Of a stretch of DNA of 64,000 nucleotides, positions 12,873-28,952 are shown one piece after another. Position numbers and translations under genes: made by a program. The stretch is from NCBI GenBank assembly GCA_964416665.1, contig CAYQFA010000001.1:40082-104081 (forward strand), given 5' to 3'. The notes beneath the pieces are model-generated. The model saw nothing but the letters and a program-made list of their open reading frames with translations, was not told the origin of the DNA and ran no database searches. The number at the start of each line of letters is the position of its first letter. Position 1 is the stretch's first letter. The stretch is from an uncultured Candidatus Saccharibacteria bacterium (GTDB taxonomy: Bacteria; Patescibacteriota; Minisyncoccia; UBA6257; 2-01-FULL-56-20).

Positions 12873-13781
12873 ATGGCTCGCAAAATAACCGTTCTTCTTA
12901 TGGGTGGGTTGGGCAATCAGATGTTCCAGTATGCGGCCGGTTTTAGCCTTGCAAAAAAGAACAACGCGCAGCTTTTCCTCGACACGACGCTTCTCAACGA
13001 CCGTTTTCCGCGGAAGGAATTTACCTTTCGCACACTGGATCTTGATATTTTTGGCATCGCGCCGAATTTTACGACGTTTTCGAAGGTCTCTCAAGCGATG
13101 CCGATTCCCGGCGTCTGGCTCGGCATAGATTATTCGTTGATAAAAGCGAGGGATGTTCTCGGGATCCAAAAAACGATAAAAGAGCGATCTCCCGTGTTCG
13201 ACCCCGATATTTTCAATATGGAAAGTAACGCTCTCTTGTTCGGATATTGGCAAAGCGAAAAATATTTTGAAAACGTAAAGGACGACCTTCGCGCCGTCTT
13301 CGATTTCAAGATCCCGCTTGCAGGCGTAGCAAAAGAAATCGCGGAAAAGATAAAAAGTACCAACTCAGTCGCACTTTTTGTGCGCCGCGGGGATTACGTT
13401 AACTTTGCGCGTGTGCGCGCGGAAATGGGCGATACCAACATAACGTACTATAAAAATGCCATTACTTACATCGCGGAACGCGTCAATAATCCCGCGTTCT
13501 TTATCTTTTCGAACGATATCGAGTGGTGCAGGGACAATTTGAAAATTCCTTTTCCTGCCATGTATATAGACAACGATCCGGCGAAGGTCGGCCCCAAGTT
13601 CTCTTATCAATTGCAGCACATGTCCCTTTGTAAGCACAATATCATCGCGAACAGCACGTTTCCCTGGTGGGGTGCGTGGTTGAATCCGAACCCACAGAAA
13701 ATAGTGATCGCGCCGCGCCAGTGGAACCTTCTTTTGCCGAGTGGGCAGGGTCCGGTACCTTCAGACTGGATAAAAATGTAG
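12873..13781 (+). CDS. glycosyltransferase family 11 (alpha-1,2-fucosyltransferase-like)
   Basis: GT11 motifs are present: N-terminal GGLGNQMFQYA and the HVRRGDY-type motif (LFVRRGDYVNF). The track start at 12867 is GTG; the first ATG is at 12873. Confidence 0.7.
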   Translation: MARKITVLLMGGLGNQMFQYAAGFSLAKKNNAQLFLDTTLLNDRFPRKEFTFRTLDLDIFGIAPNFTTFSKVSQAMPIPGVWLGIDYSLIKARDVLGIQKTIKERSPVFDPDIFNMESNALLFGYWQSEKYFENVKDDLRAVFDFKIPLAGVAKEIAEKIKSTNSVALFVRRGDYVNFARVRAEMGDTNITYYKNAITYIAERVNNPAFFIFSNDIEWCRDNLKIPFPAMYIDNDPAKVGPKFSYQLQHMSLCKHNIIANSTFPWWGAWLNPNPQKIVIAPRQWNLLLPSGQGPVPSDWIKM

Positions 13782-13786
13782 CATCC

Positions 13787-14815
13787 ATGAAGAAGTATTT
13801 TTATATTCTGAACCATCCTCTTTGTCCGACCCCGTATACCCACCGTTTTTTTGTCGAGAAATTCGCTTCGGGTTTCACCTACCATGGCTATGAGGTGAAG
13901 CTGATCTCGTCACCGCAGGAGATCGTGGGCCCGGGCGTGATGATGATCTACGATGCCGGATTTTATTTCTATTGGAACGATGGCATAAGGAATCTTCGTC
14001 GGGATTTTTTCATCATTGTCGACAGGGCTTTCAAAGCGCTGAAGTTAACGTGGTTCTCCGATCTCTGTTGGCATCTTCGCAAGAAGGCGATCATGCAATT
14101 TGCCCCGACGTTGAAAGAAAAGAATGTGGTATTGTTGGGATGGTTCTGGTTCTGGCAGAAGAAATTTTTCGACGACAACAGCATAAAGATCGTCTACACC
14201 GGTGAATACTTCTATCGAGAACCGGTTCACCGGCATCGTAAGGCGTGGTGGCATTTTTATACTGAGAATCGTGAGGGCCATGCGTTACCCATCCAGTTCG
14301 CCGCCGCGATGGATCCTCTCGTCGTAGGGTCGGATCCGGAAGCGAAAAGGGATATTATGGTATCATTCGTAGGGGAGCGAAAGTATAAGCCCGACTGGCA
14401 GGCCCTGTTCAATAAGCGGTCGGACTGTCGGATCGTGCCTACTCCTCCCTACATTCCCGAACTCGAGCGAATTGATATTTATAAGAGAAGTCTTGTTTCC
14501 TTAGGGCTTGAAGGATGTCCTCTTATAAGAGATGGGCTTGTGACGGAAAGGATTTTTGAGGCCTTGGCATACGGGGCCGTGTGCATTACCAACCATGATG
14601 AAGCCGTTGAAGCGACGAACGGCGCCGCGGTCTTTGCAAAGGATGCAAACGATGCGGAGGAGAAGGTGAAATATTTTTCCGCCGATAGGGCCGCAGCGAC
14701 GAGGCAGAGGGCGTTGGGATTTCGGTTTGTGAAAGAACAGGGGACATATGCTCATCAGGCAGGGAAATTCATTGCACTTATAGAAGGCGGTGTTCAGCAA
14801 AATTCTCATTTGTAA
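13787..14815 (+). CDS. putative glycosyltransferase (GT1/GT4-like C-terminal domain)
   Basis: ATG at 13787 (MKKYFYILNHP…) follows the upstream stop at 13781. The C-terminal region ERIFEALAYGAVCIT resembles the GT-B donor-binding fold. Confidence 0.4.
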   Translation: MKKYFYILNHPLCPTPYTHRFFVEKFASGFTYHGYEVKLISSPQEIVGPGVMMIYDAGFYFYWNDGIRNLRRDFFIIVDRAFKALKLTWFSDLCWHLRKKAIMQFAPTLKEKNVVLLGWFWFWQKKFFDDNSIKIVYTGEYFYREPVHRHRKAWWHFYTENREGHALPIQFAAAMDPLVVGSDPEAKRDIMVSFVGERKYKPDWQALFNKRSDCRIVPTPPYIPELERIDIYKRSLVSLGLEGCPLIRDGLVTERIFEALAYGAVCITNHDEAVEATNGAAVFAKDANDAEEKVKYFSADRAAATRQRALGFRFVKEQGTYAHQAGKFIALIEGGVQQNSHL

Positions 14816-14817
14816 CA

Positions 14818-15486
14818 ATGGACATAAGAAAAAAATTTTTAGGTGTCGGTAAGACCATCAGGGATGCTATTCTTTACGATAAGTATCAAAAGATACACTT
14901 ACAATTTCTCAAAGATTTTGGGGAGGACACCTTGCGTCTTGATTACGACTTTCTTACCGAAGATTCGGTGGTCTTTGATTTAGGTGGCTATCGCGGGCAG
15001 TCGACAAGCGATCTGTTCTCGAAATATGGGCCGAATATGTATGTTTTTGAGCCAGTCGAGGAGTATGCTGATTTTCTTCGCAAAAGATTTGCGAGGAGGA
15101 GCAACAAGATAAAAATATTCCAATTTGGACTTGGCAGTAGGACCGAAGAACAAACAATAAAGCTCGAGGCCGAAGGGTCAAGTACTTATAAATCGGCAGG
15201 CGACACTTCTATACATATCGAGGATTTTATGGAATTTGTAAAAAGGGAAAAAATTGAAAAGATCGACCTCCTGGAGATAAATATCGAAGGTGGAGAATAT
15301 GATGTGCTGCCATATTTAATAGAGACGGGATATATTAAAAACATACGTGCGTTACAGATACAATTTCACAACTTAATGAAAGACGCGCCGCAAAGGGTTG
15401 CCAAGATAAGGGAGGGGCTCGCAAAGACCCATGTTTGTGATTATAGCTACGATTTTAGCTGGGATGGTTGGACGTTGAAAAAATAA
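14818..15486 (+). CDS. FkbM-family SAM-dependent methyltransferase
   Basis: FDLGGYRGQST…VFEP…IDLLEINIEGGEYDVL, the FkbM-domain signature. Confidence 0.65.
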   Translation: MDIRKKFLGVGKTIRDAILYDKYQKIHLQFLKDFGEDTLRLDYDFLTEDSVVFDLGGYRGQSTSDLFSKYGPNMYVFEPVEEYADFLRKRFARRSNKIKIFQFGLGSRTEEQTIKLEAEGSSTYKSAGDTSIHIEDFMEFVKREKIEKIDLLEINIEGGEYDVLPYLIETGYIKNIRALQIQFHNLMKDAPQRVAKIREGLAKTHVCDYSYDFSWDGWTLKK

Positions 15487-15508
15487 AGATGGATAGAATT
15501 TCAACGCT

Positions 15509-16285
15509 ATGGATTATATATTGAAAAAGATAAGATTTTTATATAAAGAGCAGGGGATACTCGGCCCAACCCGCGCGCTTGGTCGGAAGATCTATTATTA
15601 TGGTATCCGAATTCCCGGACATTTTTTTTCCTACCTTTGGGCAGTGACGATAAGGAGGAAGAGATTTCCAACATTCGCCTTTGAGGGGAAGACCTACGAC
15701 TATCTTTGCAGCTATAAGAATTTTGCGTGGCTGTCGGAAAGGACAGCCGAGGTTCCCATCGCCGCCGGGTATATGCGGGACGCGCTCGCGAAGGGGAGTC
15801 GGGTTTTGGAGGTTGGCGATGTTCTCCGGCAGTATACCGGCCTGCGCGCGCAAGACATTGTCGATAAGTATGAGTATCGCAAAGGTATTATTAACGAGGA
15901 TATCGAAGAATTTGTGCCCAAGGAGCGCTATGATTTCATTGTGAGCGTTTCCACCATGGAACACGTGGGTTGGGATGCGCCGGATATTCGCGATCCCGAA
16001 AAATCCGCCCGTGTGATGCGCCTGTTCAAAGATAAATTCCTTACCCCCGGAGGAATGGGCGTCATCACGCTTCCCGTGGGTCAGAATCCCGAGCTTGATA
16101 AACGCCTGCGTGCCCACGCCCTTCCTTTCACAGAAACCTATTTTTTGAAGAGGATATCGAAAGAGAACGAATGGGTGGAAACCGACGAGGCTGACGCGTT
16201 CACGAAAAAATATCACTCGCCTTTTCCCAACGCGAACGCCATTGTTATTGGTATTATTCGGGCAGAAGGGAAAGACAAGGCATGA
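15509..16285 (+). CDS. class I SAM-dependent methyltransferase-like protein
   Basis: VLEVGDVL…FIVSVSTMEHVG resembles methyltransferase motifs I and post-I. Confidence 0.4.
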   Translation: MDYILKKIRFLYKEQGILGPTRALGRKIYYYGIRIPGHFFSYLWAVTIRRKRFPTFAFEGKTYDYLCSYKNFAWLSERTAEVPIAAGYMRDALAKGSRVLEVGDVLRQYTGLRAQDIVDKYEYRKGIINEDIEEFVPKERYDFIVSVSTMEHVGWDAPDIRDPEKSARVMRLFKDKFLTPGGMGVITLPVGQNPELDKRLRAHALPFTETYFLKRISKENEWVETDEADAFTKKYHSPFPNANAIVIGIIRAEGKDKA

Positions 16286-17352
16286 TAAGAATATTCTCCA
16301 TAAAACCATTTTCGGGGAGTCCCACCGATGGCATTGATAATGTGAATAGTGCCGTATTCAAGCGTCTTGATCTTGCGCGCATAGAATTCCACTCTGAAAT
16401 GGCAGACGGCATTTTGGAAGAGGGGAGCATAAAAAAGTTGGCGATGGGGCCACGCGGGGGGATAAGGAAGATCATTCATAAAATAATCTTGCTGCGGCGC
16501 ATGAATCCCGAATATTTATTTGGGATAGGGACCGTCTCCGACGTCGTCTTTATATTGGCGAAACCTCGCCGGACGAAATATGTGATCGCATGGCACACCG
16601 TCCTTTTTAAGAATAGCTCGTCATGGCGCGTTCGTACGCCCTGGTTCTTGAGGGTTTTCATTTTCAATCGCGCAGACTTTATTATCACCGTCTCTACGTT
16701 TTCGGCTGACGCAATACGACATTTTTTCCCACACAAGAAAGTCATTGTTATATTAAACGGCGTGGATGTAACTCTTTTCGACACCGTCCGGGGAGATCAG
16801 GGTTATTTGCACGAAAAATATCACATCGATTTTTCGAAGCCAGTTATGGTATTCGTGGGCGCCATGAGCGAGAGAAAGCGGCCGGATATCTTCTTCAAGC
16901 TCTCGGAGGACTTTCCGGGGGCAAACTTCGTTGCAGTCGGAAGGGATCCCGTGGGTTGGGATTTTCTCCGCTCTCCGCGCTCCGCTCATTTTCAGTGGAT
17001 AGAGTCGATGCCCCGCGAAGATATCGCCCGTCTTTTTGCGGCGAGTAGAATATTTGTTTTTCCCAGCCTGAACGATGCTTCGGCAGCGGTTATTTTGGAG
17101 GCGATGGCATCCGGGTGCGTCCCCATCGTTTCGAGAAGCGGGGGGAGCCCGGAATTCTTTAAGGAGGGTGTTAGTGGATTTTCCATTCCTGTAGACGACG
17201 AGGAAATAGCGGCCTTCTCTCAGAGAATAAAGCTACTTCTCGGCGATGCCGTTTTCGACCCAGCGCGATTGATGGCGCGAAAAGAGGCGGAACAGCACTC
17301 CCTGGACGCTGTTGCCAAGCAATACGAAAAAATTTTTGAAGAAAATGTCTAA
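16282..17352 (+). CDS. glycosyltransferase family 4 (GT-B, Glycos_transf_1)
   Basis: C-terminal EAMASGCVPIVSRSGGSPEF and an EX7E-like motif. ATGA overlap with the upstream gene. Confidence 0.75.
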   Translation: MIRIFSIKPFSGSPTDGIDNVNSAVFKRLDLARIEFHSEMADGILEEGSIKKLAMGPRGGIRKIIHKIILLRRMNPEYLFGIGTVSDVVFILAKPRRTKYVIAWHTVLFKNSSSWRVRTPWFLRVFIFNRADFIITVSTFSADAIRHFFPHKKVIVILNGVDVTLFDTVRGDQGYLHEKYHIDFSKPVMVFVGAMSERKRPDIFFKLSEDFPGANFVAVGRDPVGWDFLRSPRSAHFQWIESMPREDIARLFAASRIFVFPSLNDASAAVILEAMASGCVPIVSRSGGSPEFFKEGVSGFSIPVDDEEIAAFSQRIKLLLGDAVFDPARLMARKEAEQHSLDAVAKQYEKIFEENV

Positions 17353-19087: not shown

Positions 19088-20104
19088 ATGATTGTTTCAC
19101 GTGCGCCGATGCGCGTCAGTTTTGTTGGGGGAGGCACCGACCTTCCTGATTTTTATAAACGCTATCCCGGGCGGGTTATTTCGACGAGCATCGACAAATT
19201 CGTCCATGTGGTGCTGAACCGCACGCCGCTCATCGACAAGATCTCTGCCCGTTATAATATCGCGGAAACCGTTGACTATCCGAGCGAACTTAAGCATACG
19301 AGGATCAAGGCGGCCCTGCTCGATCTTGAAATCACAAAGGGCCTTGAGATCGGTTCTTTCGCAACACTTCCGCAGAGCACCGGCATGGGTTCATCGTCCA
19401 GTTTTTCTGTGGCGCTTATCAAGGCGCTTTATGCCTATCAGGGAAAAAGGATAGGAAAGCGCGAGGTTGCCGAGGCGGCGTCGCGCTTGGAGATCGAATT
19501 GGTAGGCGAGCCGATCGGGAAACAGGACCAGTACGCCGCCGCATTCGGCGGATTCAACATCTTTCAATTCAACGCCGACGGAACGGTGGACGTGAAGCCG
19601 ATCCTTCTTGACTACAAGAAGTCGTTTGATTTCCAGAACCATATTCTGGTGTTCTTCACGGGTGTCACGCGTTCGGCCTCAAGTGTTCTCACCGAGCAAA
19701 AGAGCAATATTGATAAAAAATTCGAGACGCTCAAAGAGATGTCGGATTCCGTTCCGGAGTTTGAGGCGCGTCTTTTGAAGGGCGACATAAAGGGCCTGGG
19801 AGGCATGTTGCATGATGGGTGGGTCAAGAAAAAAACACTGTCGTCCAACGTTTCGAATTCCGTCATCGATGGCCTTTATGAGGCCGGTATGGCGAACGGC
19901 GCGTGGGGCGGAAAGGTGCTTGGGGCAGGCGGCGGAGGCTGCGTCATGTTCGTTGTTCCCCCCGAGAAACGCGCAGCTGTTCATTCCGAGCTTATAAAAA
20001 AGGCCGCCGGGCTCGATCTGGCGGGTGCGAAGGAGATACCGATCGGCTTCATCCAATCGGGCGTCGAGATTGTGCACAACAGCGACAAAAATATCTCACT
20101 CTAA
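19088..20104 (+). CDS. hddA: D-glycero-alpha-D-manno-heptose 7-phosphate kinase (GHMP kinase)
   Basis: N-terminus MIVSRAPMRVSFVGGGTDLPDFY plus the GHMP ATP-binding loop PQSTGMGSSSSFSVA. Confidence 0.75.
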   Translation: MIVSRAPMRVSFVGGGTDLPDFYKRYPGRVISTSIDKFVHVVLNRTPLIDKISARYNIAETVDYPSELKHTRIKAALLDLEITKGLEIGSFATLPQSTGMGSSSSFSVALIKALYAYQGKRIGKREVAEAASRLEIELVGEPIGKQDQYAAAFGGFNIFQFNADGTVDVKPILLDYKKSFDFQNHILVFFTGVTRSASSVLTEQKSNIDKKFETLKEMSDSVPEFEARLLKGDIKGLGGMLHDGWVKKKTLSSNVSNSVIDGLYEAGMANGAWGGKVLGAGGGGCVMFVVPPEKRAAVHSELIKKAAGLDLAGAKEIPIGFIQSGVEIVHNSDKNISL

Positions 20105-20111
20105 AAAAACC

Positions 20112-20717
20112 ATGGAAGACTTCATTAAAGATTTCGCGCGGAAGGTTGAGGATTGCCTGGAGAATCTTCCCGCCGAAGAGATCGCGAAAGCGATCAATAT
20201 CATTCAGGCTTGCTACGAGCGCGATGGGAGGATATATATCTTCGGCAACGGCGGCTCGCTCGCCATCGCCACCCACTGGGTGTCCGATATCAACAAGACC
20301 ATTTTCAGCCATCATCTTGACCATCCGGGTCGGCGATTCCAGGCAATCCGCCTGCCCTCCACAGAATCGGAGATCACCGCATGGGCGAATGATGTCGGTT
20401 ATGACATGGTCTTCGCCGGTCCGCTTAAGAACTATCTTCAGGAAACTGACGTCATCATTGCTATTTCGAGTTCGGGGAATTCCGAAAACATCGTAAAGGC
20501 GGCGCAGTTCGCCAAGGAGCAGAATGTTCCGATCATCGGCCTTTCGGGTTTCGACGGCGGCAAACTGAACGAGCTTTCCGACGCAAAGATATTGGTGAAA
20601 ACGGAAAAAGGGGAATATGAAGTGGTGGAAAGCGCGCACGGGACGATCATGCATCTCATCGTAAAATATTTCAAAAATTATTTCGATCATCTTGTCGAAC
20701 ACCGTGCCGCGAAGTAA
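20112..20717 (+). CDS. gmhA: phosphoheptose isomerase (SIS domain)
   Basis: RIYIFGNGGSLAIATHW…AISSSGNSENIV SIS motifs. The ATG at 20112 sits 8 nt after the hddA stop. Confidence 0.8.
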   Translation: MEDFIKDFARKVEDCLENLPAEEIAKAINIIQACYERDGRIYIFGNGGSLAIATHWVSDINKTIFSHHLDHPGRRFQAIRLPSTESEITAWANDVGYDMVFAGPLKNYLQETDVIIAISSSGNSENIVKAAQFAKEQNVPIIGLSGFDGGKLNELSDAKILVKTEKGEYEVVESAHGTIMHLIVKYFKNYFDHLVEHRAAK

Positions 20718-21282
20718 CCTCAAAAAAACGAGAGCTGTTTTTCTCGATCGCGACGGCGTGATCAACCGTGAGGTCGGCATTTTGAGCTCGGTACAACAGC
20801 TCACGATCCTTCCGAAGGCCGCCGCTGCGATAGCGGCCATCAACAAGCTGGGATTCCTTGTGGTGGTCGCCACCAATCAGCCCGTCATCGCGCGCGGACT
20901 GATCTCAGAGCCCGAGCTCGATGCGATCCACGCGGTCATGGTCAGCCGTCTTGCGCGTCACGGCGCGAAGATCGATGCCATTTATTATTGTCCGCACCAT
21001 CCCGATGCGAACCTCAAAAAATATCGCGTGCGGTGCCGGTGCCGTAAGCCCAACATCGGTCTCATCATGCGGGCGGTAAAGGAGCACGGCATCGCGCTCG
21101 ATAAAAGCTTTCTCATCGGCGACCGGACGGTGGACATCGTGGCGGGCAAGAAAGCCCGCGTTCGTACCATTCTCGTGAGAACCGGTTTCGGCGGGAAGGA
21201 TGGGAAGTTCGATGTCGCTCCTGATTTCACTGCAAAAGATCTTGGTGCTGCCGTAAGAATAATAAAAAAATATGCAAAATAA
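20692..21282 (+). CDS. gmhB: D,D-heptose 1,7-bisphosphate phosphatase (HAD family)
   Basis: HAD motif I FLDRDGVIN plus the CxHx…CxC zinc site (YYCPHHP…CRCRKP) typical of GmhB. Confidence 0.75.
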   Translation: MSNTVPRSNLKKTRAVFLDRDGVINREVGILSSVQQLTILPKAAAAIAAINKLGFLVVVATNQPVIARGLISEPELDAIHAVMVSRLARHGAKIDAIYYCPHHPDANLKKYRVRCRCRKPNIGLIMRAVKEHGIALDKSFLIGDRTVDIVAGKKARVRTILVRTGFGGKDGKFDVAPDFTAKDLGAAVRIIKKYAK

Positions 21283-22015
21283 GATCACGCAGGCCGTCAT
21301 TTTGGCAGCCGGTCTCGGCACGCGTCTGCGGCCGCTTACCGACACCGTGCCGAAGGTGATGGTCCCTATCGCGCCGGGCAAACCGCTTCTTGAGCATATC
21401 GTCGAGCTTCTGCGTGGCCAGGGCATCACGGACTTTATTGTCAATGTCCATTATCTGCCGGAAGTGATCACTTCGTATTTTGGCGACGGAACAAAATGGG
21501 GCGTGCGCATTCGCTACAGTGATGAGCGCGATCGACCGCTTGAGACCGCAGGTGCGATGAAAAAAATGGAGTCGATGCTGGACGATAATTTCCTTTTTCT
21601 CTACGGCGATACGCTTCATTTTCTCGATTTCGAACCGCTCATTGAGGAGCATATGGAACACGGCGCCATTGGAACGCTTGTTCTCAAGAGATCCGATTAT
21701 CCGAAGGACGGCGATATCGGCGAGTTCGATGTAGCGACCAAAAAGATCATCCGATGGCACACGCGCCCGCACGACATCACCGTGCTCGGTCCGAACATGC
21801 TGGTGAATGCCGGTCTCTACGCATTTTCAAAAAAAATAGCCGATTATATTCCTTCCGGCGTCCCCGTGAAGCTTGATGGCGAGGTCATTCCCAAGGCGAT
21901 GGCGGCCGGCGAGCCGCTCTACGCCTATCCTACCGACGAGATCATCTGGGATATCGGCAGACCGGAAAAATATGAAAAGGCGAAAGAGTATTACGCGAGC
22001 CGGATGAAAAACTAA
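21272..22015 (+). CDS. hddC: D-glycero-alpha-D-manno-heptose 1-phosphate guanylyltransferase
   Basis: Nucleotidyltransferase N-terminus AVILAAGLGTRLRPLT. Sits in the hddA-gmhA-gmhB context. Confidence 0.65.
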   Translation: MQNKITQAVILAAGLGTRLRPLTDTVPKVMVPIAPGKPLLEHIVELLRGQGITDFIVNVHYLPEVITSYFGDGTKWGVRIRYSDERDRPLETAGAMKKMESMLDDNFLFLYGDTLHFLDFEPLIEEHMEHGAIGTLVLKRSDYPKDGDIGEFDVATKKIIRWHTRPHDITVLGPNMLVNAGLYAFSKKIADYIPSGVPVKLDGEVIPKAMAAGEPLYAYPTDEIIWDIGRPEKYEKAKEYYASRMKN

Positions 22016-22066: not shown

Positions 22067-22633
22067 CTAGGAAAGGATGTATTTGATTGCCTCATCAACG
22101 CAGTTTTCGACCGTGTTCGGTGGGGAGGTGTCGAGCGTGAGATGTTCAACGGGCGGTATCTCGAAGCGGGCTTTCACTTCGTGGTAGCGTTCAAGCGAAT
22201 TGACACTTGACCAGCAGTTTACGCCGAATTGTCGGCTCGCGAGACGGCGAGCGATCTCCTCGTCGCTGTCGTTCTCCGGCTTGCACCAGATCACTCGTAG
22301 GTTCGGAGAGAGCCTGGCGGCAATGAGTATCTCCAGGAAGTTGTCCCAGTAGCTTGTTCGGGAGAATGTTGCCGTCACAATGAGCCTCCGGCCCATCGCC
22401 ATATTTGCGGTGATGGAGGAATAGAAAAGGTCGTAAGCGCCTTTCATTTCCCTGCGATCCTTTTCCATCTCCTGTTGTGAGACGGGGTGAGGGTTGGGCG
22501 TGCCAAAATTCAATACTCGCACGGCGTCGATATCCAACCAATGGATGTTGAGCTGCTTTGCGATCGCCGCCGCGAGAGTGTCTTTACCTGCGACAGCCCA
22601 CCCACAAAGTACGATCAATTCGCCGTCGTTCAT
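22067..22633 (-). CDS. P-loop NTPase / small-molecule kinase (AAA_33-like; weak adenylylsulfate-kinase-like motifs)
   Basis: Start MNDGELIVLCGWAVAGKDTL (Walker A), followed by LDIDAVRVLNF, which resembles the APS-kinase LDGDNVRHGLN. The ATG overlaps the upstream stop in an ATGA arrangement. Confidence 0.45.
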   Translation of the reverse strand: MNDGELIVLCGWAVAGKDTLAAAIAKQLNIHWLDIDAVRVLNFGTPNPHPVSQQEMEKDRREMKGAYDLFYSSITANMAMGRRLIVTATFSRTSYWDNFLEILIAARLSPNLRVIWCKPENDSDEEIARRLASRQFGVNCWSSVNSLERYHEVKARFEIPPVEHLTLDTSPPNTVENCVDEAIKYILS

Positions 22634-23445
22634 ATTACACTTCCTTTCAGGAGTTTCAGGATAGCCCTTTGGTCGGTTCCGTTTCCCGAAGCAACGATGT
22701 TCCGGGAATTTTCGAAGGTCGGCCAGTCGCCATTCCAGTCGGTGACGATCCCTCCCGCTTCTTGAGCAAAGATGATCGCCGGAAGGTTGTCCCACGGGGC
22801 GTTGTCCACCGACACCAGGGCACCTACATGACCTTGCGCCAGGGCGGTTGCCGCGACACAACTCGAAAAGCTTGGTCGTACAGTAAGAGTTTTTCCAAGC
22901 TCGGATACCTGCGGCGATTTGAAGAACTTCTTCGATGAGCCCTCAAGCATCACGGTCAGCCGTTCGAGTTGGCCTTCGCGCGCCACGTGGAGTTGATGAT
23001 ACAATTGGTGTTCCTCGCACCATTGCCAGGCTCCTCGTCCGTTCTCCGCGTAGAAAAACCCATTTCCGCGGAGCGTTTGGTCGACGGGCCTGAAGATTGC
23101 GGCATAGAGCACGTCATCTCCTTGCCTTCTCGAGATAGCGGCGCCATAAGAGTTGAGTCCCATGCGTCGGTTTCCCGTTCCATCGAGTCCGTCGAGATAC
23201 CATTCCGGGCGTTCGCCGTGGTTCTCATCCTTGATGTTGTCTTCCTCACCGACGGTGCTGTCGGCAGGGAAATAGTTGTGAACTACTTCACGCAGTTTTG
23301 CGAGCGCCAAGTGGTCAAGGCTTCCGACGGGAGTTCCGTCGCCCTTGATCTTGTCGCCTAACTGCTCATGTGCTGTGCCGATGTAATTCGGGAGAAGGCT
23401 GAGGAACAGCCCTCGCAGCGCCGTAGTGAATGCTTCATAGCCCAT
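22630..23445 (-). CDS. inositol-monophosphatase / CysQ-family phosphatase
   Basis: IMPase-family motifs WYLDGLDGT and WDNLPAIIFAQEAGGIVTD. The ATG at 23445 (MGYEAF…) is preceded by a strong SD, GAAGGAGG, 8 nt upstream. The longer track ORF starting at 23517 lacks an SD. Confidence 0.6.
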   Translation of the reverse strand: MGYEAFTTALRGLFLSLLPNYIGTAHEQLGDKIKGDGTPVGSLDHLALAKLREVVHNYFPADSTVGEEDNIKDENHGERPEWYLDGLDGTGNRRMGLNSYGAAISRRQGDDVLYAAIFRPVDQTLRGNGFFYAENGRGAWQWCEEHQLYHQLHVAREGQLERLTVMLEGSSKKFFKSPQVSELGKTLTVRPSFSSCVAATALAQGHVGALVSVDNAPWDNLPAIIFAQEAGGIVTDWNGDWPTFENSRNIVASGNGTDQRAILKLLKGSVI

Positions 23446-23533
23446 CGCGGGCCTCCTTCTTTCTTTTCCGAAATCTCTCAGACCAAAATTTGTGAAGGTC
23501 TGGGCATATAATAACACATATCTAGCACTAAAG

Positions 23534-23706
23534 TCAACTCACACGCCATCCCGCAGCTTGGTAGAATTTCTTATGTTTTAGTTGGTATGGGCTGCTCTCA
23601 GGAATCGATTTAATGACCTCTTCCAGAAGAGGCTCTTTGAGCATCTTCAAGGCGGCAAAATATACCAGTGCGCCGAGCGCAATGTATGGGTATATAATGG
23701 GTGCTT
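23534..23706 (-). pseudogene. 3'-terminal remnant of a Wzx-type flippase gene (about 57 codons, no start codon)
   Basis: The in-frame peptide …IYPYIALGALVYFAALKMLKEPLLEEVIKSIP…* matches the C-terminus of the intact wzx (…VIYFLILKILKEPLLEEVFSLIP…). Over the core, 26 of 29 nt are identical (23615-23643 vs 24630-24658). Confidence 0.5.
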
Positions 23707-23773
23707 CTATTGAAGGGATAGTTCGGTTATAATGAGGTCAGGAGCTATGAGATGGTGACCCCTTGAATCAGGC

Positions 23774-23796
23774 CAGCGGTCCGCTGCCTCTTTTTT
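23774..23796 (+). terminator. intrinsic terminator / attenuator-like hairpin immediately upstream of the FkbM gene
   Basis: CAGCG-GTC-CGCTG followed by CCTCTTTTTT. It is preceded by a TATAAT box (23728-23733) and two 3-4 codon mini-ORFs. Confidence 0.35.
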
Positions 23797-23817
23797 ATGG
23801 GGTTCTTATAAAAATCA

Positions 23818-24585
23818 ATGGAAAAGATTTTCAAGCAATTTCAAGGGTTGAGACAATACGGGTTGAAATACACCCCATTTATTCTTGCTCGCCTCGGCCT
23901 TAAAAGATCCGGCGAGATCACGGTAAAATTTTTCTGGGGTAAGACAGTGAAGCTGCCGTTCAACGCCGTAACGACGGAGCTGTATTATTTGCAAGCCGTG
24001 CCGGAGCCCAGGCTGATAGATTTCCTATCGAAGACATTAAAGGAAGGTGATGTCTTTTATGATATCGGAGCGAATTATGGCTTTTATTCTTTCCTCGCTA
24101 GTCATTTGCGCGCGAAGGTATTCCTCTTTGAACCTATAGCGGAAAATTGTAAGGCTATCAGAAAAAATATCTCTCCTGCGGAAGATATTTCCGTGAATGA
24201 GGTGGCCGTTGGGGAGGTTGCGAATGAACAGATCCCGTTTTATGAGGCGACGATACGAAATTCACAGAGTAGCGCCGACTCAAAGGCGGTCGAGGGAGTC
24301 AAAACCAGAAAGGTTTTGGCCAAAACGGAGTCCATTGATAACTTTGTGCTTACCCATCCAAAACCCACAGTTCTTAAAATAGATGTTGAAGGCTTTGAAG
24401 AGAAAGTCATAAAAGGGGGATCCACTTTTTTCCGCGATAACTTCCCCGTGATTATCATGGAGGCGTGGGGTGGAGAGAAGGGAGAACAATTTGCGCCGCC
24501 AGCGATAACATATCTCAATTCGCTCGGTTACAAAATTCGAGAGAATCTCGATGGCAACAATGTGTTCAGAAAAGTGAGCGCGTAA
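23818..24585 (+). CDS. FkbM-family SAM-dependent methyltransferase (second copy)
   Basis: FYDIGANYGFYS…LFEP…LKIDVEGFEE FkbM signature. Own -10-like TATAAA box 5 nt before the ATG. Confidence 0.65.
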   Translation: MEKIFKQFQGLRQYGLKYTPFILARLGLKRSGEITVKFFWGKTVKLPFNAVTTELYYLQAVPEPRLIDFLSKTLKEGDVFYDIGANYGFYSFLASHLRAKVFLFEPIAENCKAIRKNISPAEDISVNEVAVGEVANEQIPFYEATIRNSQSSADSKAVEGVKTRKVLAKTESIDNFVLTHPKPTVLKIDVEGFEEKVIKGGSTFFRDNFPVIIMEAWGGEKGEQFAPPAITYLNSLGYKIRENLDGNNVFRKVSA

Positions 24586-24591
24586 ATCGCT

Positions 24592-26067
24592 CTATCCAAC
24601 CAATGGGTTCTTCCGTGGGATCAAACTGAAAACCTCTTCCAAAAGAGGCTCTTTAAGGATTTTTAATATTAGGAAATAGATGACGCAGCTAATGGATATA
24701 TTGACGATGACGTTGATGTGGAGAAAAAGGAAAATCGTTGTGAAAATCCCCATAACAACGCTCGCGAGAGCTATGTTTTTAAGCCGTGTTATTACGGTGA
24801 ATCTATTTATTTTTTTCATAGCCCACCACAGGTAGCCGTTATTTACGGCCTGGGCGATGAGCGTGGCCACCGCCGAACCGGCGATGCCGAAGAACGGAAT
24901 CAGGGCAAGATCGAGGCCGACGTTCACTATGCCGCCGAGCGTGGAAGAAACAATGAGGCTCTTTTGGTGGTCATAGGCGAAGAGCGCGTTGATGATGATG
25001 GATGCGGGAAAGTCGAAGATGAGCGTCGCCGCGAGGATTTTGAAAGCGAGGCCTCCCGCTGCGTAGGGCGCGCCGAATACGAAGCCCATGATTTGCGTAC
25101 CAAGTACGACCCCGCCGATAGACAGCGGGAAGGAAGCAAGGAATACCATGCCGAGCGTGCGTTCGAAAGTGCTGCGAAATCGCTCGTTGTCGTGCTTCGC
25201 AAGGCGTGAAATGAGCGGGAGGGTGGCGAATTGTATGATGCTTGGTACAAGATAGAACATCTGGATGATGCGGATGGCTGCGGAATAGACGCCGACATCT
25301 GAGGCCGATCGCATCCAGCTGATGATGAGGATATCGCTGTTTGTAAAGAGCAGGCCGAGCGCGCCACTGATTGCAAATGGCCATGCTGCCCTAAGGATCG
25401 GCATGATACGCTCCGGCTCGAAACCCGAGAATATTTTTTTGAAGTAACCACGCAAGGCTATCACTGAAGCCGCAGTGCCGACGGCGTCGCCGGCAACATA
25501 ACCCCAACTGAATGCCTGTACGTTCGCTGCATAGGCGAGGAAGATGAAGCCGAACACGACGATGCCGAGGTTGGTGAGAAGGAACAACCCCGCCTCCCAC
25601 TCCATCTTTTCCATGGCGCGGAAGAGCGACAAAAAGAATTCACGCATAGTATCGAAAGCGAGCACAAGAGCGACAATAGGAATCAGAACCTTGGCTCCCG
25701 GGAGTGTGGTGAAAAGAGGGGCGACAAACAGGATGCCCATGACGCCGACGAGTAAAAGCACGATCTTTATCGCGAACATCGTCCCGAACATCGCGCGGCG
25801 TTCCTTTTCATCAACCTTCCCCGCATCGCGGATAAGGATGCCATTGATGCCAGGATCCATAAGAAGTGTGAGGAACCCGGCGAGTGTGATGACGTAGGAA
25901 AAGACGCCGTAGCCGTCGGTGCCCAAGATACGCGCGGCATAGATGATGATGACCGCCTTAATGAGTCGCCCGCCGAAATTCGACACCGAGAGCCAGAACG
26001 TATTTTTTACCACGGTCTGTTTGGCGCTTGTGTTCTTAAAAAGGAAGGCTTTTATTTTTTTGAACAT
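24592..26067 (-). CDS. wzx: oligosaccharide flippase (Wzx, MOP superfamily)
   Basis: About 12-14 TM helices with polysaccharide-biosynthesis-protein family character. ATG at 26067 (MFKKIKAFLF…); the track ORF starts at a GTG at 26130. Confidence 0.7.
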   Translation of the reverse strand: MFKKIKAFLFKNTSAKQTVVKNTFWLSVSNFGGRLIKAVIIIYAARILGTDGYGVFSYVITLAGFLTLLMDPGINGILIRDAGKVDEKERRAMFGTMFAIKIVLLLVGVMGILFVAPLFTTLPGAKVLIPIVALVLAFDTMREFFLSLFRAMEKMEWEAGLFLLTNLGIVVFGFIFLAYAANVQAFSWGYVAGDAVGTAASVIALRGYFKKIFSGFEPERIMPILRAAWPFAISGALGLLFTNSDILIISWMRSASDVGVYSAAIRIIQMFYLVPSIIQFATLPLISRLAKHDNERFRSTFERTLGMVFLASFPLSIGGVVLGTQIMGFVFGAPYAAGGLAFKILAATLIFDFPASIIINALFAYDHQKSLIVSSTLGGIVNVGLDLALIPFFGIAGSAVATLIAQAVNNGYLWWAMKKINRFTVITRLKNIALASVVMGIFTTIFLFLHINVIVNISISCVIYFLILKILKEPLLEEVFSLIPRKNPLVG

Positions 26068-26123: not shown

Positions 26124-26627
26124 ATGACACCCAAAAAGAAATTGGCGAGGCGCGTTAAAAAAGATCCCAAAAAAGTCGTGGTTGCGGTCTCCGGCGGATT
26201 CGATCCGATCCACATCGGCCATGTGCGGATGTTCGAGCGGGCCAGATCGCTCGGCGATGAGCTGGTCGTGATTTTGAATAATGACAATTGGCTCAAAAAG
26301 AAAAAAGGGTATGTGTTCATGCCGGAGCGGGAGCGGAAGGAGGTGATCGAAGGGCTCCGCGCGGTGGACCGTGTGGTCGTCACCAAGCATAAGCCGGACG
26401 ACAACGATGTAAGTGTGTGCCGTGAACTTCGCGCGATCAAGCCCGACGTCTTCGCTAATGGCGGCGACAGGAAATTCGATAATACCCCCGAGGTCGCCGT
26501 CTGTGATGCCATTGGATGCGCGATGGTGTTCAATGTCGGCAAGGGCGGGAAGATACAATCCAGTTCATGGCTGCTGAAGAACCACGCCAATCACATTGCC
26601 GGAAAGAGCGGAAAGAAAGCGCAGTGA
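26124..26627 (+). CDS. cytidylyl/adenylyl-transferase-like nucleotidyltransferase (RfaE domain II / TagD-like HxGH fold)
   Basis: VVAVSGGFDPIHIGHVRMFERARSLGDELVVILNND…ERKEVIEGLRAVDRVV matches the (H/T)xGH cytidylyltransferase core of the HldE C-terminal domain. Confidence 0.55.
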   Translation: MTPKKKLARRVKKDPKKVVVAVSGGFDPIHIGHVRMFERARSLGDELVVILNNDNWLKKKKGYVFMPERERKEVIEGLRAVDRVVVTKHKPDDNDVSVCRELRAIKPDVFANGGDRKFDNTPEVAVCDAIGCAMVFNVGKGGKIQSSSWLLKNHANHIAGKSGKKAQ

Positions 26628-26636
26628 TAGAACGGG

Positions 26637-27563
26637 TCAGACTTTAATCGTCTCAAGCGTTTTCCGGATACCTTCCCTCAATTTTATCGTCGGCGTCCAC
26701 CCAAGAACTTTTTTCGCCTTGCCTGCCTTGATGGATATCTGATAGACCTCTCCTTTTCGATACGCCGCAAAGACGGGTTTTTCGGGATAGCCGGTGCTTG
26801 CGGCAATCTCATCGAATATCATCCTATCGGTGACCGTCTTGCCCCAGCCGAGGTTGACGATATCATTACGGCCCTTCTTGAGCGCAAGGACGTTCGCGTG
26901 CACCACATCGTGGACGAAGGTGTAATCGCGTGCTTTCGTACCATCGCCAAAAATGGTGGGCCGTTTTCCGGATTTCATGAGGCCGCCAAAGATGGCGACC
27001 ACGCCGGCCTCGCCTTTCGGATTTTGGCGTGGGCCATAGACGTTCGGATAACGGAAAATGAGGTAGGTAAAGCCGTACTGGCGGGCGTAGAAGGTGATCA
27101 CTTCCTCGCCGAGCAGTTTGGAAAGTCCATAGGGGGAAAGCGGGGCTGCGGTGGTGGATTCGTCGGCGGGGATCTTTTTGGGTTCGCCATAGATCGCGCC
27201 GCCCGTGGAAGAGAATATGAATTTCCTGTTCTTTCCCTTCCCGTGATGTCCGAATGCGAGCAGTACGTTCGTTGTACCGAGCACATTCACCTGGAGGGTC
27301 GGTATGGGGTCGCGCAGCGATTTGACCACTTCCGCGATTGCCGCATGGTGGTTCACGACCTCAGGCCTTTCCTTTTTGAATATCCTTTCCATCGCCGCCG
27401 CATCGCGGATATCGGCTTTGTAGAACGTCGCTTTCGGGTTGACGTTCTTTCTGAACCCGGTGGAAAGGTCGTCAATGACCGCCACGCGATGACCGGCTTT
27501 TATATAAGCGTCAACGATGTGCGACGCGATGAACCCCGCTCCGCCCGTAACGATGATTTTCAT
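26637..27563 (-). CDS. UDP-glucose 4-epimerase family NAD-dependent epimerase
   Basis: MKIIVTGGAGFIASHIVD…YGLSKLLGE (YxxxK) SDR epimerase motifs. Confidence 0.7.
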   Translation of the reverse strand: MKIIVTGGAGFIASHIVDAYIKAGHRVAVIDDLSTGFRKNVNPKATFYKADIRDAAAMERIFKKERPEVVNHHAAIAEVVKSLRDPIPTLQVNVLGTTNVLLAFGHHGKGKNRKFIFSSTGGAIYGEPKKIPADESTTAAPLSPYGLSKLLGEEVITFYARQYGFTYLIFRYPNVYGPRQNPKGEAGVVAIFGGLMKSGKRPTIFGDGTKARDYTFVHDVVHANVLALKKGRNDIVNLGWGKTVTDRMIFDEIAASTGYPEKPVFAAYRKGEVYQISIKAGKAKKVLGWTPTIKLREGIRKTLETIKV

Positions 27564-27614: not shown

Positions 27615-28952
27615 CTACTCTGGATTCACAAAGAGCGACTTGATCGTCTTGAGAATGATGGCCCAATCCAAAATCGGCGAGCGGTTCTTGAGGTAGTAGA
27701 TATCGTATTGCAGTTTTTCCACGACGTCGGCATCGGTGAGATCGGCGCGATGATGGATCTGCGCCCACCCCGTGATCCCGGGCTTGATAAAGAGCCGCGC
27801 TTCATAATAGGGGATCCGCTCCTCGAGCTTTGCCACGAACTCAGGCCGTTCCGGTCGTGGGCCGACAAAAGAAAGGTCACCGCGGATGATATTCCAAAGC
27901 TGTGGTAATTCGTCGAGGTGGGATTTGCGGAGGAACCCGCCGATGGGCGTCGTGCGTCGATCGTTCTTTGCCGCCCATTGCGCACCGTCCTTTTCCGCGT
28001 CCACGCGCATGGTGCGGAATTTATAGAACATGAACTCTTTCCCTTTCTCGCCGACGCGGACCTGTTTGTAAATGATGGGGCCGCGCGAGGTGAGCCTTAC
28101 GAGCAGGGCGATGATGATCTCGATAGGGATGAGAACGATGCCAAGCACGAGCGCCTCGATCAGCTCTGATGCCCTTTTAAGGGGATCATAAAAACGCGTG
28201 TCTCTGGCTATGTTCTCCAGGAACCAGGTCTCTTTGATCTCGGTAAGCGGGACCTTTCGCATGATAAGTTCATAGAGGCTTGTCATATCGGTTACGAGGA
28301 CGCCGCCGCCAAAGAGCTCGTAAAGCACGGCGACCAGTTTCGGCTCCTGCTTGAGATGGCTGGAAATGACGATGAGATTGATATGCTCACGCCGCGCGAT
28401 CGTTTTTATTTCCTCCGGCGTCGCGTACGCGGTCTTCTCTTCCACGTCTGCTTTGATGGCGTAGCCAAGCTGGGGATTCTCGGTGATGGTCTTTTTTATT
28501 TCTGCCGCGATCGTCCCGTCGCCGATGATGAGGGTTCGGTTGGGCGCTTCGCCGAACGCCATGGCGCGGTTCAAGGATCGGCGCCAAAATATTTCAATGA
28601 TCGTAAAAATGACGGCGAACAGCAGGAGGTTGGTCTTTGGCGCGATGCCGAACGCGGGAATGAGGTAGAAGAGTGATATCGCGAGGGCGGTATTCACTCC
28701 GATGCACAAGAAGAGCGTTTTGATGAAGTCCAGATTATTGCGAAGGCGACGCAGATCATAGAGTCCTGCGATATAGAAAACGGCGATCCATAGGACGAAG
28801 ATGGCGGTAAAGGGGAGCGCGTGCGCATCGCGGAATTGTGCGTAAAATCCGGAACCGTATCTGATGATAAGCGTGAGGAAGAGCGCCGCATAGAGTGCGA
28901 CGGCGTCTGCAATGACGAACAAAAAAGCCTTTAATTTATGGACGGCATCCAT
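27615..28952 (-). CDS. polyprenyl-phosphate hexose-1-phosphate transferase (WbaP/WcaJ-like initiating sugar transferase, Bac_transf)
   Basis: N-terminal TM block, then a C-terminal Bac_transf domain: DELPQLWNIIRGDLSFVGPRPERPEF…PGITGWAQI. Confidence 0.75.
   Translation of the reverse strand: MDAVHKLKAFLFVIADAVALYAALFLTLIIRYGSGFYAQFRDAHALPFTAIFVLWIAVFYIAGLYDLRRLRNNLDFIKTLFLCIGVNTALAISLFYLIPAFGIAPKTNLLLFAVIFTIIEIFWRRSLNRAMAFGEAPNRTLIIGDGTIAAEIKKTITENPQLGYAIKADVEEKTAYATPEEIKTIARREHINLIVISSHLKQEPKLVAVLYELFGGGVLVTDMTSLYELIMRKVPLTEIKETWFLENIARDTRFYDPLKRASELIEALVLGIVLIPIEIIIALLVRLTSRGPIIYKQVRVGEKGKEFMFYKFRTMRVDAEKDGAQWAAKNDRRTTPIGGFLRKSHLDELPQLWNIIRGDLSFVGPRPERPEFVAKLEERIPYYEARLFIKPGITGWAQIHHRADLTDADVVEKLQYDIYYLKNRSPILDWAIILKTIKSLFVNPE

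Follow-up and report, generated by a model that had tools for sequence, protein, structure and literature searches.

A probable 3' remnant of a flippase gene at a rearrangement junction in the surface-glycan locus of an uncultured CPR bacterium

The DNA analyzed here is a stretch of 64,000 nucleotides (the window), which lies within the 119.5-kb JGI contig Ga0455670_0001261 (JGI 3300041809) and contains a surface-glycan locus. Glycosyltransferase genes occupy the plus strand upstream of position 19088, followed on the same strand by GHMP kinase, SIS, HAD and NTP-transferase genes that form a heptose-nucleotide-like operon (19088-22015). This operon resembles the nucleotide-activated heptose pathway, and its order is conserved in the related locus L006 (JGI 3300044823), where the proteins are 86-95% identical. 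It converges on a pair of minus-strand genes, one encoding an AAA_33-type kinase (22067..22633) and the other a protein of the inositol-monophosphatase family (IMPase; 22630..23445; PF00459, E=1.3e-18; 271 aa from the ATG at 23445), which overlap by 4 nt and are co-transcribed. Beyond the IMPase gene lie an FkbM-family methyltransferase gene, FkbM2 (23818..24585, plus strand; PF05050), which is extra relative to the related loci, and an intact PST-family flippase gene (24592..26067, minus strand), whose product has 491 aa from MFKKIKAF and matches PF01943 with E=1.5e-40, as well as PF13440 and PF03023. A CTP-transferase-like gene (26124-26627, plus strand), an epimerase gene (26637-27563, minus strand), a Bac_transf gene (27615-28952, minus strand) and minus-strand GT2 genes downstream of 28952 complete the locus on this side. 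A separate segment of low GC content (13000-16300, 44-48%) contains a GT11 fucosyltransferase-like gene, another glycosyltransferase gene, the first FkbM gene (14818-15486, 40% GC) and a 258-aa ORF (15509-16285) without a Pfam match; this segment, too, was probably acquired by the glycan locus.

Between the IMPase gene (22630-23445, minus strand) and FkbM2, where the original prediction had located it, the minus strand carries a frame that is open from stop to stop (23534..23737) in both the translation and the ORF list. Minus-strand translation of 23534-23821 yields, for 23737..23534, the peptide PHYNRTIPSIEAPIIYPYIALGALVYFAALKMLKEPLLEEVIKSIPESSPYQLKHKKFYQAAGWRVS, with IALGALVYFAALKMLKEPLLEEVIKSIP in its C-terminal end and a TGA stop at 23534-23536; stops 5' of the frame occur at 23738-23740 and beyond. 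The part that is homologous to the flippase family (23588..23686, minus strand) spans approximately 32 codons, covering the last hydrophobic segment and the motif YF..LK.LKEPLLEEV...IP, and its upstream limit at around 23686-23700 is the breakpoint. No ATG, GTG or TTG was found 5' of this homologous part in the ORF list or the translation, and the sole ORF listed in the frame, of 38 aa (23650-23534), begins at a TTG at 23650 inside the motif. We found no Shine-Dalgarno sequence for the frame, and a sigma-70-like scan of 23300-24700 detected no minus-strand promoter-like site 5' of it. The absence of both is suggestive of a silent relic.

The homologous part amounts to about 6% of the flippase protein, and transporter function is impossible. 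Flippases of PF01943 (PST/Wzx type, MOP superfamily) have about 490 aa and multiple membrane-spanning segments; the intact neighbor has this full length, and the relic frame retains only the C-terminal subfamily signature. The start codon and ribosome-binding site of a complete ORF are likewise missing. What the frame does have are the features of a gene remnant, namely significant homology to one portion of a working gene whose remainder is absent, and a location that corresponds to the position of the intact gene in L006 and L007 and to the flippase 3' end in L010. As a gene it probably does nothing, and in annotation it should not be called as one.

Homology to the flippase family was assessed with a family HMM (492 positions) that we built from 120 flippase homologues. 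The relic frame matched HMM positions 456-486 of 492 with a score of 16.4 bits (E=0.001), whereas reversed-sequence decoys reached at most 5.7 bits and 2000 shuffled versions of the relic peptide at most 5.5 bits. Across the window and L003-L011, translated in six frames, it was the only match besides the full-length flippases, and the HMM found no further flippase-like pieces in any frame of 23400-23830 or in the rest of the window. Homologues of the intact flippase number in the hundreds; the top 120 have 57-82% identity to it, and several of these are named Candidatus Paceibacterota by their sources. These 120 proteins, like the relic, carry the C-terminal signature YF..L[KR].L[KR]EPLL.E...P in this or a closely similar form. 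The scores above those of the decoys, the varied codons with which homologues encode the signature and the absence of Rfam matches within 23300-23900 together argue that the relic is a real piece of a flippase-family gene, and the original prediction of a start-less minus-strand frame homologous to the flippase C-terminus thus held up. Its use of the name wzx is a different matter. The gene encodes a PST/MOP-family flippase that is highly conserved across Paceibacterota, and the relic does come from the family of the intact gene, but wzx, which strictly denotes the flippase for undecaprenyl-PP-linked O units destined for Gram-negative LPS, is only a label by analogy. A search of a 5.8-billion-protein collection with the 67-residue relic peptide returned no candidate, a weak negative given that its word index requires three 5-residue words in common and that the intact flippase escaped it as well.

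The relic and the C-terminus of the intact flippase, which ends in ISISCVIYFLILKILKEPLLEEVFSLIPRKNPLVG, share 17 of 32 aligned residues. At the nucleotide level, the 29-nt core with 26 identities that had been reported for the two copies is correct, and the similarity does not stop there, as it might for a short convergent motif: local alignment extends it to 30 of 35 nt, and a repeat finder recovered a gap-free direct repeat of 64 nt at 72% identity, with one copy on the relic side (23587..23650) and the other inside the 3' end of the intact gene (24603..24666), 1016 nt apart from start to start. Over the 96 nt of the codon alignment (23683-23588 on the relic side), the relic and the resident copy differ at 38 positions, which fall on the three codon positions as 11, 8 and 19. 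These differences are unevenly spread, with 6 in the 36-nt core and 32 in the 60 nt outside it (Fisher p=0.0005), and identity peaks in the core (30/36) and gives way to 20 differences in 33 nt in the upstream flank. The relic core is also similar to those of L006 (28/36) and L010 (26/36). Its upstream flank differs from that of every functional flippase at 15-20 of 33 positions, compared to 13-14 of 33 among the functional flippases themselves. The best protein match of the relic is the resident copy, which is only marginally ahead of several others, and at approximately 96 nt the relic is too short for phylogenetic placement.

The intact copy looks native up to the core, since its C-terminus is nearest to that of L006 (26/41) and the two genes share a 3' tail of low GC content. 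Over the last ~260 nt the GC content is 0.40 in the window, compared to 0.55 in the gene body, with corresponding values of 0.41 and 0.56 in L006; this tail is absent in L003, L004, L008 and L017. We considered whether the tail was imported together with FkbM2 and rejected this, because L006, which has no FkbM2, shows the same drop (0.406 versus 0.564).

The end of the relic coincides with a predicted sigma-70-like promoter for the IMPase-kinase operon (23508..23537, minus strand), composed of a -35 hexamer TTGACT (23537-23532), an 18-nt spacer and a TG-extended -10 hexamer TATTAT (23513-23508). With 10 of 12 matches plus the TG, this is the best sigma-70-like site in 23300-24700; its promoter activity is a prediction only. 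The TGA stop of the relic (23536-23534) lies inside the -35 hexamer, and the TGA stop of the L010 flippase is likewise within TTGACT. Only the window and L010 have the -35 block TTGACTTTAG, the L006 counterpart being a separate TTGACA farther from its flippase stop; the window, L006 and L010 all conserve the -10 region, TGTTAT(T/C)ATAT, and the CCAGNCCTT that follows it. The overlap between the stop codon and the predicted -35 hexamer would explain why the extreme 3' end of the relic has been retained. It had been proposed that the IMPase promoter must lie within the relic; the predicted promoter overlaps the relic's end, where its -35 hexamer holds the stop, but its -10 hexamer lies outside.

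The relic also helps to place the start of the IMPase gene as well as its promoter. The start is likely the ATG at 23445, which has AAGGAGG 5' of it at 23458-23452 and agrees with the ENA call. A JGI call of 295 aa (22630-23517, minus strand) places the start at a GTG at 23517, upstream of the predicted -10. The 5' UTR (23465-23506, minus strand) contains the inverted repeat CAGACC(N12)GGTCTG directly after the -10, which may form a leader hairpin; L006 and L010 also conserve its first arm (CCAGNCCTT), and it has no Rfam match. The IMPase of the window is 70-72% identical to those of L003, L010 and L011, with L010 the closest at 72%, and only 46% identical to those of L006 and L007. Two very different IMPase types are therefore found at the same position of the locus (22630-23445 in the window, 3346-4185 in L006, 10001-10804 in L003 and 171-974 in L010), which indicates a second putative allelic replacement in one lineage.

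Comparison with relatives places the relic in the history of the locus. L006 and L007 (Logan SRR35360738) have the same order: an epimerase gene, a CTP-transferase gene, then flippase, IMPase and AAA_33 kinase, then NTP-transferase, HAD, SIS, GHMP and GT2 genes. This is the order of the window minus FkbM2 and the relic, with the flippase intact and on the same strand as the IMPase and kinase genes. The window and L006 are colinear to either side of the insert, and by BLAST the two core copies map to one and the same place in L006, 3164-3196. Protein identity to L006 is 95.5% for SIS, 92.6% for GHMP, 88% for HAD, 86% for the NTP-transferase, 81% for both the flippase and the epimerase, and 78% for the CTP-transferase; nucleotide identity falls from approximately 80% to 42-64% from the relic to the IMPase/kinase boundary. 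L010, a 1.4-kb contig from Trout Bog, starts inside a flippase gene whose product has IIALRVLNEPLLEEFLSLVSIPKAARS and LNEPLLEEFLSLVSIPKAARS at its C-terminal end, and 86 nt after its stop begins an IMPase gene whose product is 72% identical to that of the window, followed by a kinase gene. Since L006, L007 and L010 share this order, the junction of flippase, promoter, IMPase and kinase appears to be ancestral, and the relic very probably sits at this ancestral flippase/IMPase junction. By the same comparison of gene orders, FkbM2 and the 1016-nt offset are the derived features of the window lineage, not the IMPase/kinase pair. The relic thus marks a rearrangement breakpoint, as originally predicted; the suggestion that the kinase/IMPase pair had been inserted into a former flippase gene fails, because in L006 and L007 the flippase runs directly into IMPase and kinase.

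Other loci bear on the IMPase gene and on what follows the flippase. Scans for IMPase recovered one locus among genome contigs and two loci among metagenome contigs, and two short contigs, L013 and L014, which have an identical kinase, end before the relic. In L003/L011 (Minisyncoccia SPRUCE_393, Ga0187866_1000816), the IMPase gene lies behind the NTP-transferase gene and faces the flippase, an inverted arrangement compared with the window, and tblastn found no AAA_33 kinase homologue downstream of it. These loci are consequently uninformative on the junction, and their inverted IMPase placement without the kinase suggests that the IMPase module, too, can move within the locus. Identity to the window is 61-73% for their other genes and ~70% for their IMPase. 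Given that these more distant loci carry the IMPase type of the window at a level expected from vertical descent, it is L006 that may have swapped its IMPase.

Across 12 distinct loci, the stop codon of the flippase closes a conserved block of GT2 genes, Bac_transf, epimerase, CTP-transferase and flippase, beyond which at least six different genes are found. These are IMPase (L006/7 and L010), a convergent GT2 (L004/5, L008/9, L015, L018 and L020), a convergent FkbM (L016 and the window), an NTP-transferase-GT2 fusion (L017), a GT10 (L019) and an NTP-transferase-like gene (L003/L011). The flippases with the most relic-like C-termini (P0024, P0075 and P0054) have a convergent GT2 or GT10 gene beside them and no IMPase. 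A second flippase piece was found by six-frame HMM search in none of the 14 other loci scanned (L003-L011 and L013-L018, less L012, with L019 and L020 left out).

The insert that separates the relic from the intact flippase has an FkbM gene as its only gene content. FkbM2 has a GC content of 45%, compared to 52.7% for the window, and a search of 5.8 billion proteins gave a best homologue at 38% identity. This search identified no donor for it, the convergent FkbM of L016 being only 30% identical. The insert shows no transposon or insertion sequence features: there is no transposase gene, the flanking repeat is 64 nt at 72% and not exact, and such inverted repeats as occur are weak and stem from the coding palindrome. 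A 110-nt spacer without flippase homology (23707..23817, 45% GC) joins the relic to FkbM2, which has no Shine-Dalgarno sequence and no sigma-70-like site in front of it. This spacer contains a plus-strand terminator-like hairpin, CAGCGGTCCGCTG plus a T-run (23774-23796), 22 nt before the FkbM2 ATG; this hairpin may once have terminated a donor gene that is now lost.

Taken together, we consider it likely that the relic is a non-coding remnant of the last ~32-50 codons of a Paceibacterota PST-family (Wzx-like) flippase gene, left at the ancestral junction by an insertion of FkbM2 that was anchored in the flippase. In the ancestor, the flippase gene would have been followed by the promoter, IMPase and kinase. 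A recombination event with its anchor in the conserved 3' end of the flippase would then have placed approximately 1 kb of foreign, low-GC FkbM DNA between flippase and IMPase. The flippase reading frame would have survived intact, and beyond the insert a further copy of its 3' end, lacking a start codon, would have remained as a direct repeat. Recombination anchored there is the most likely event, with the exact path lying among single crossover, duplication and block import; that an FkbM2 cassette entered by way of this anchor is a reading to which we give slightly better than even chances. The homology, the truncation, the synteny and the promoter motif with its conservation are observed; both the direction and the mechanism are inferred, and the path we favor would be a single-crossover (Campbell-type) or homology-facilitated illegitimate integration of a segment comprising a flippase 3' end and a convergent FkbM gene. 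A crossover or anchor within the core would be expected to leave the identity between the two copies highest there and much lower to either side, as observed. The upstream flank of the relic is contiguous with the low-GC spacer and its plus-strand hairpin just before FkbM2, as if the donor's upstream gene had ended there, and a flippase followed by a convergent FkbM gene also occurs in L016.

In Campbell-type single-crossover and homology-facilitated illegitimate integration, an insert comes to be flanked by two direct copies of the anchor, one of which completes the gene while the other is truncated. The direct-repeat architecture that flanks the insert in the window is the same. Unlike in those systems, no circular intermediate, integrase or donor was identified, and the anchor would be only the near-identical core of 23-36 nt.

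An alternative that we regard as unlikely is block import: a segment running from a flippase 3' end through the promoter and IMPase, and perhaps the kinase, would have come from another Paceibacterota lineage and been joined next to a resident flippase with its convergent FkbM2, by an illegitimate join beside FkbM2 and a homologous one in the kinase gene or heptose operon, so that the relic would be hitch-hiking donor DNA. The IMPase, at 46% identity to that of L006 between flanks at 78-95%, fits such an import, as do the drop in nucleotide identity to 42-64% over precisely the stretch between the relic and the IMPase/kinase boundary, the junction with the stop inside the -35 hexamer that recurs in L010, whose IMPase is the closest found, and the flippase-convergent FkbM order of L016. 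However, the relic core is closer to the resident copy (30/36) and to L006 (28/36) than to L010 (26/36), the ~70% identity of the window-type IMPase in the distant L003/L011 fits vertical descent and a change in L006, and we found no genome that has flippase and FkbM2 without IMPase. Alternatively, the resident flippase 3' end could have been partially duplicated in place when FkbM2 was inserted and then have decayed neutrally, which we consider distinctly improbable. Direct repeats do flank the insert, the resident copy is nominally the best match of the relic, and the excess divergence of the upstream flank (15-20/33 against 13-14/33 among flippases) hints at some decay. A duplicate decaying in this way would not be expected to diverge as unevenly as 6/36 in the core and 32/60 outside it (Fisher p=0.0005), nor to show an excess of third-position changes (11/8/19) with every family-conserved residue intact and 67 codons open. 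This uneven, third-position-biased divergence with intact residues is a pattern of coding constraint and not of long neutral decay, and with 38 of 96 nt different, a recent duplication of the resident copy is unsupported; duplication had been one of the possibilities offered by the original prediction.

The remaining readings dispute that the frame is a relic at all. A chance or convergent motif, or a DNA palindrome (CCTCTTC-TG-GAAGAGG) maintained for a nucleic-acid function, is very improbable. The best-conserved 23 nt are indeed an imperfect palindrome, which is the source of inverted repeat I1, but homologues keep the EPLL.E peptide with other codons (GAGCCGCTCTTGGAAGAG, GAGCCACTCCTAGAAGAG and GAACCGCTGCTGATCGAG), the homology spans 31-32 residues including YF and IP, and the site is the position of an intact flippase end in relatives, with no Rfam match; the palindrome is a by-product of the Leu-Leu-Glu-Glu codons. 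There is similarly little chance that an assembler joined two strains or loci at shared flippase 3' sequence. Although a metagenome contig with a repeat at a junction invites this suspicion, a repeat of 72% over only 64 nt could not have led an assembler astray, colinearity with L006 extends to either side, and the ENA ERZ27250145 MEGAHIT contig k141_1846927 (12,354 bp), which may share its reads with the window, spans both junctions at 100% identity. Least of all would we credit a live small gene, such as one encoding the 38-aa product of the TTG ORF at 23650-23534 as a membrane-proximal peptide. The frame is open to the original stop, but it has no Shine-Dalgarno sequence, whereas the neighboring IMPase gene has AAGGAGG, and there is no minus-strand promoter-like site upstream; the 38-aa ORF would start in the middle of a helix and of the motif, and the null result for the 67-residue peptide in the protein collection adds a weak negative.

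Remnants of this kind have been described in O-antigen loci. For example, Salmonella groups B1 and D1 have wzy remnants between wbaV and wbaU, and group D2 has an H-repeat remnant at the D1/E recombination junction (PMC3715488). Like the relic, these are truncated, non-functional pieces of glycan-processing genes that record the history of gene order, and they lie at the junction of blocks that differ in their similarity to related clusters. The differences are that the host of the relic is an uncultured CPR bacterium (Paceibacterota/Minisyncoccia) and not an enterobacterium, that the relic is a piece of a flippase gene with an intact copy 1 kb away as a direct repeat, and that its locus has no insertion sequence or H-repeat and its stop codon forms part of a predicted promoter. 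Remnants in O-antigen and capsule loci are already well known, and the relic is a tidy example from the CPR: an ordinary scar of the shuffling of a cell-surface-sugar locus that calls for no category of its own.

The relic points to the direction taken by one step in the history of this locus, the gain of an FkbM gene between the flippase and the IMPase-kinase pair, and the stop codon of the flippase marks the boundary between a block that is conserved phylum-wide and one that is highly variable. We speculate, with considerable doubt, that the flippase 3' end, with its near-palindromic EPLLEE core, has repeatedly been the anchor for recombination that exchanges the variable half of the cell-surface glycan locus in Paceibacterota. 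If this were true, the relic would be a caught-in-the-act record of the homology-anchored capture of a foreign DNA cassette in a CPR bacterium. As it stands, it provides modest evidence for the capture of foreign genes in CPR glycan loci, with no need for a new mechanism.
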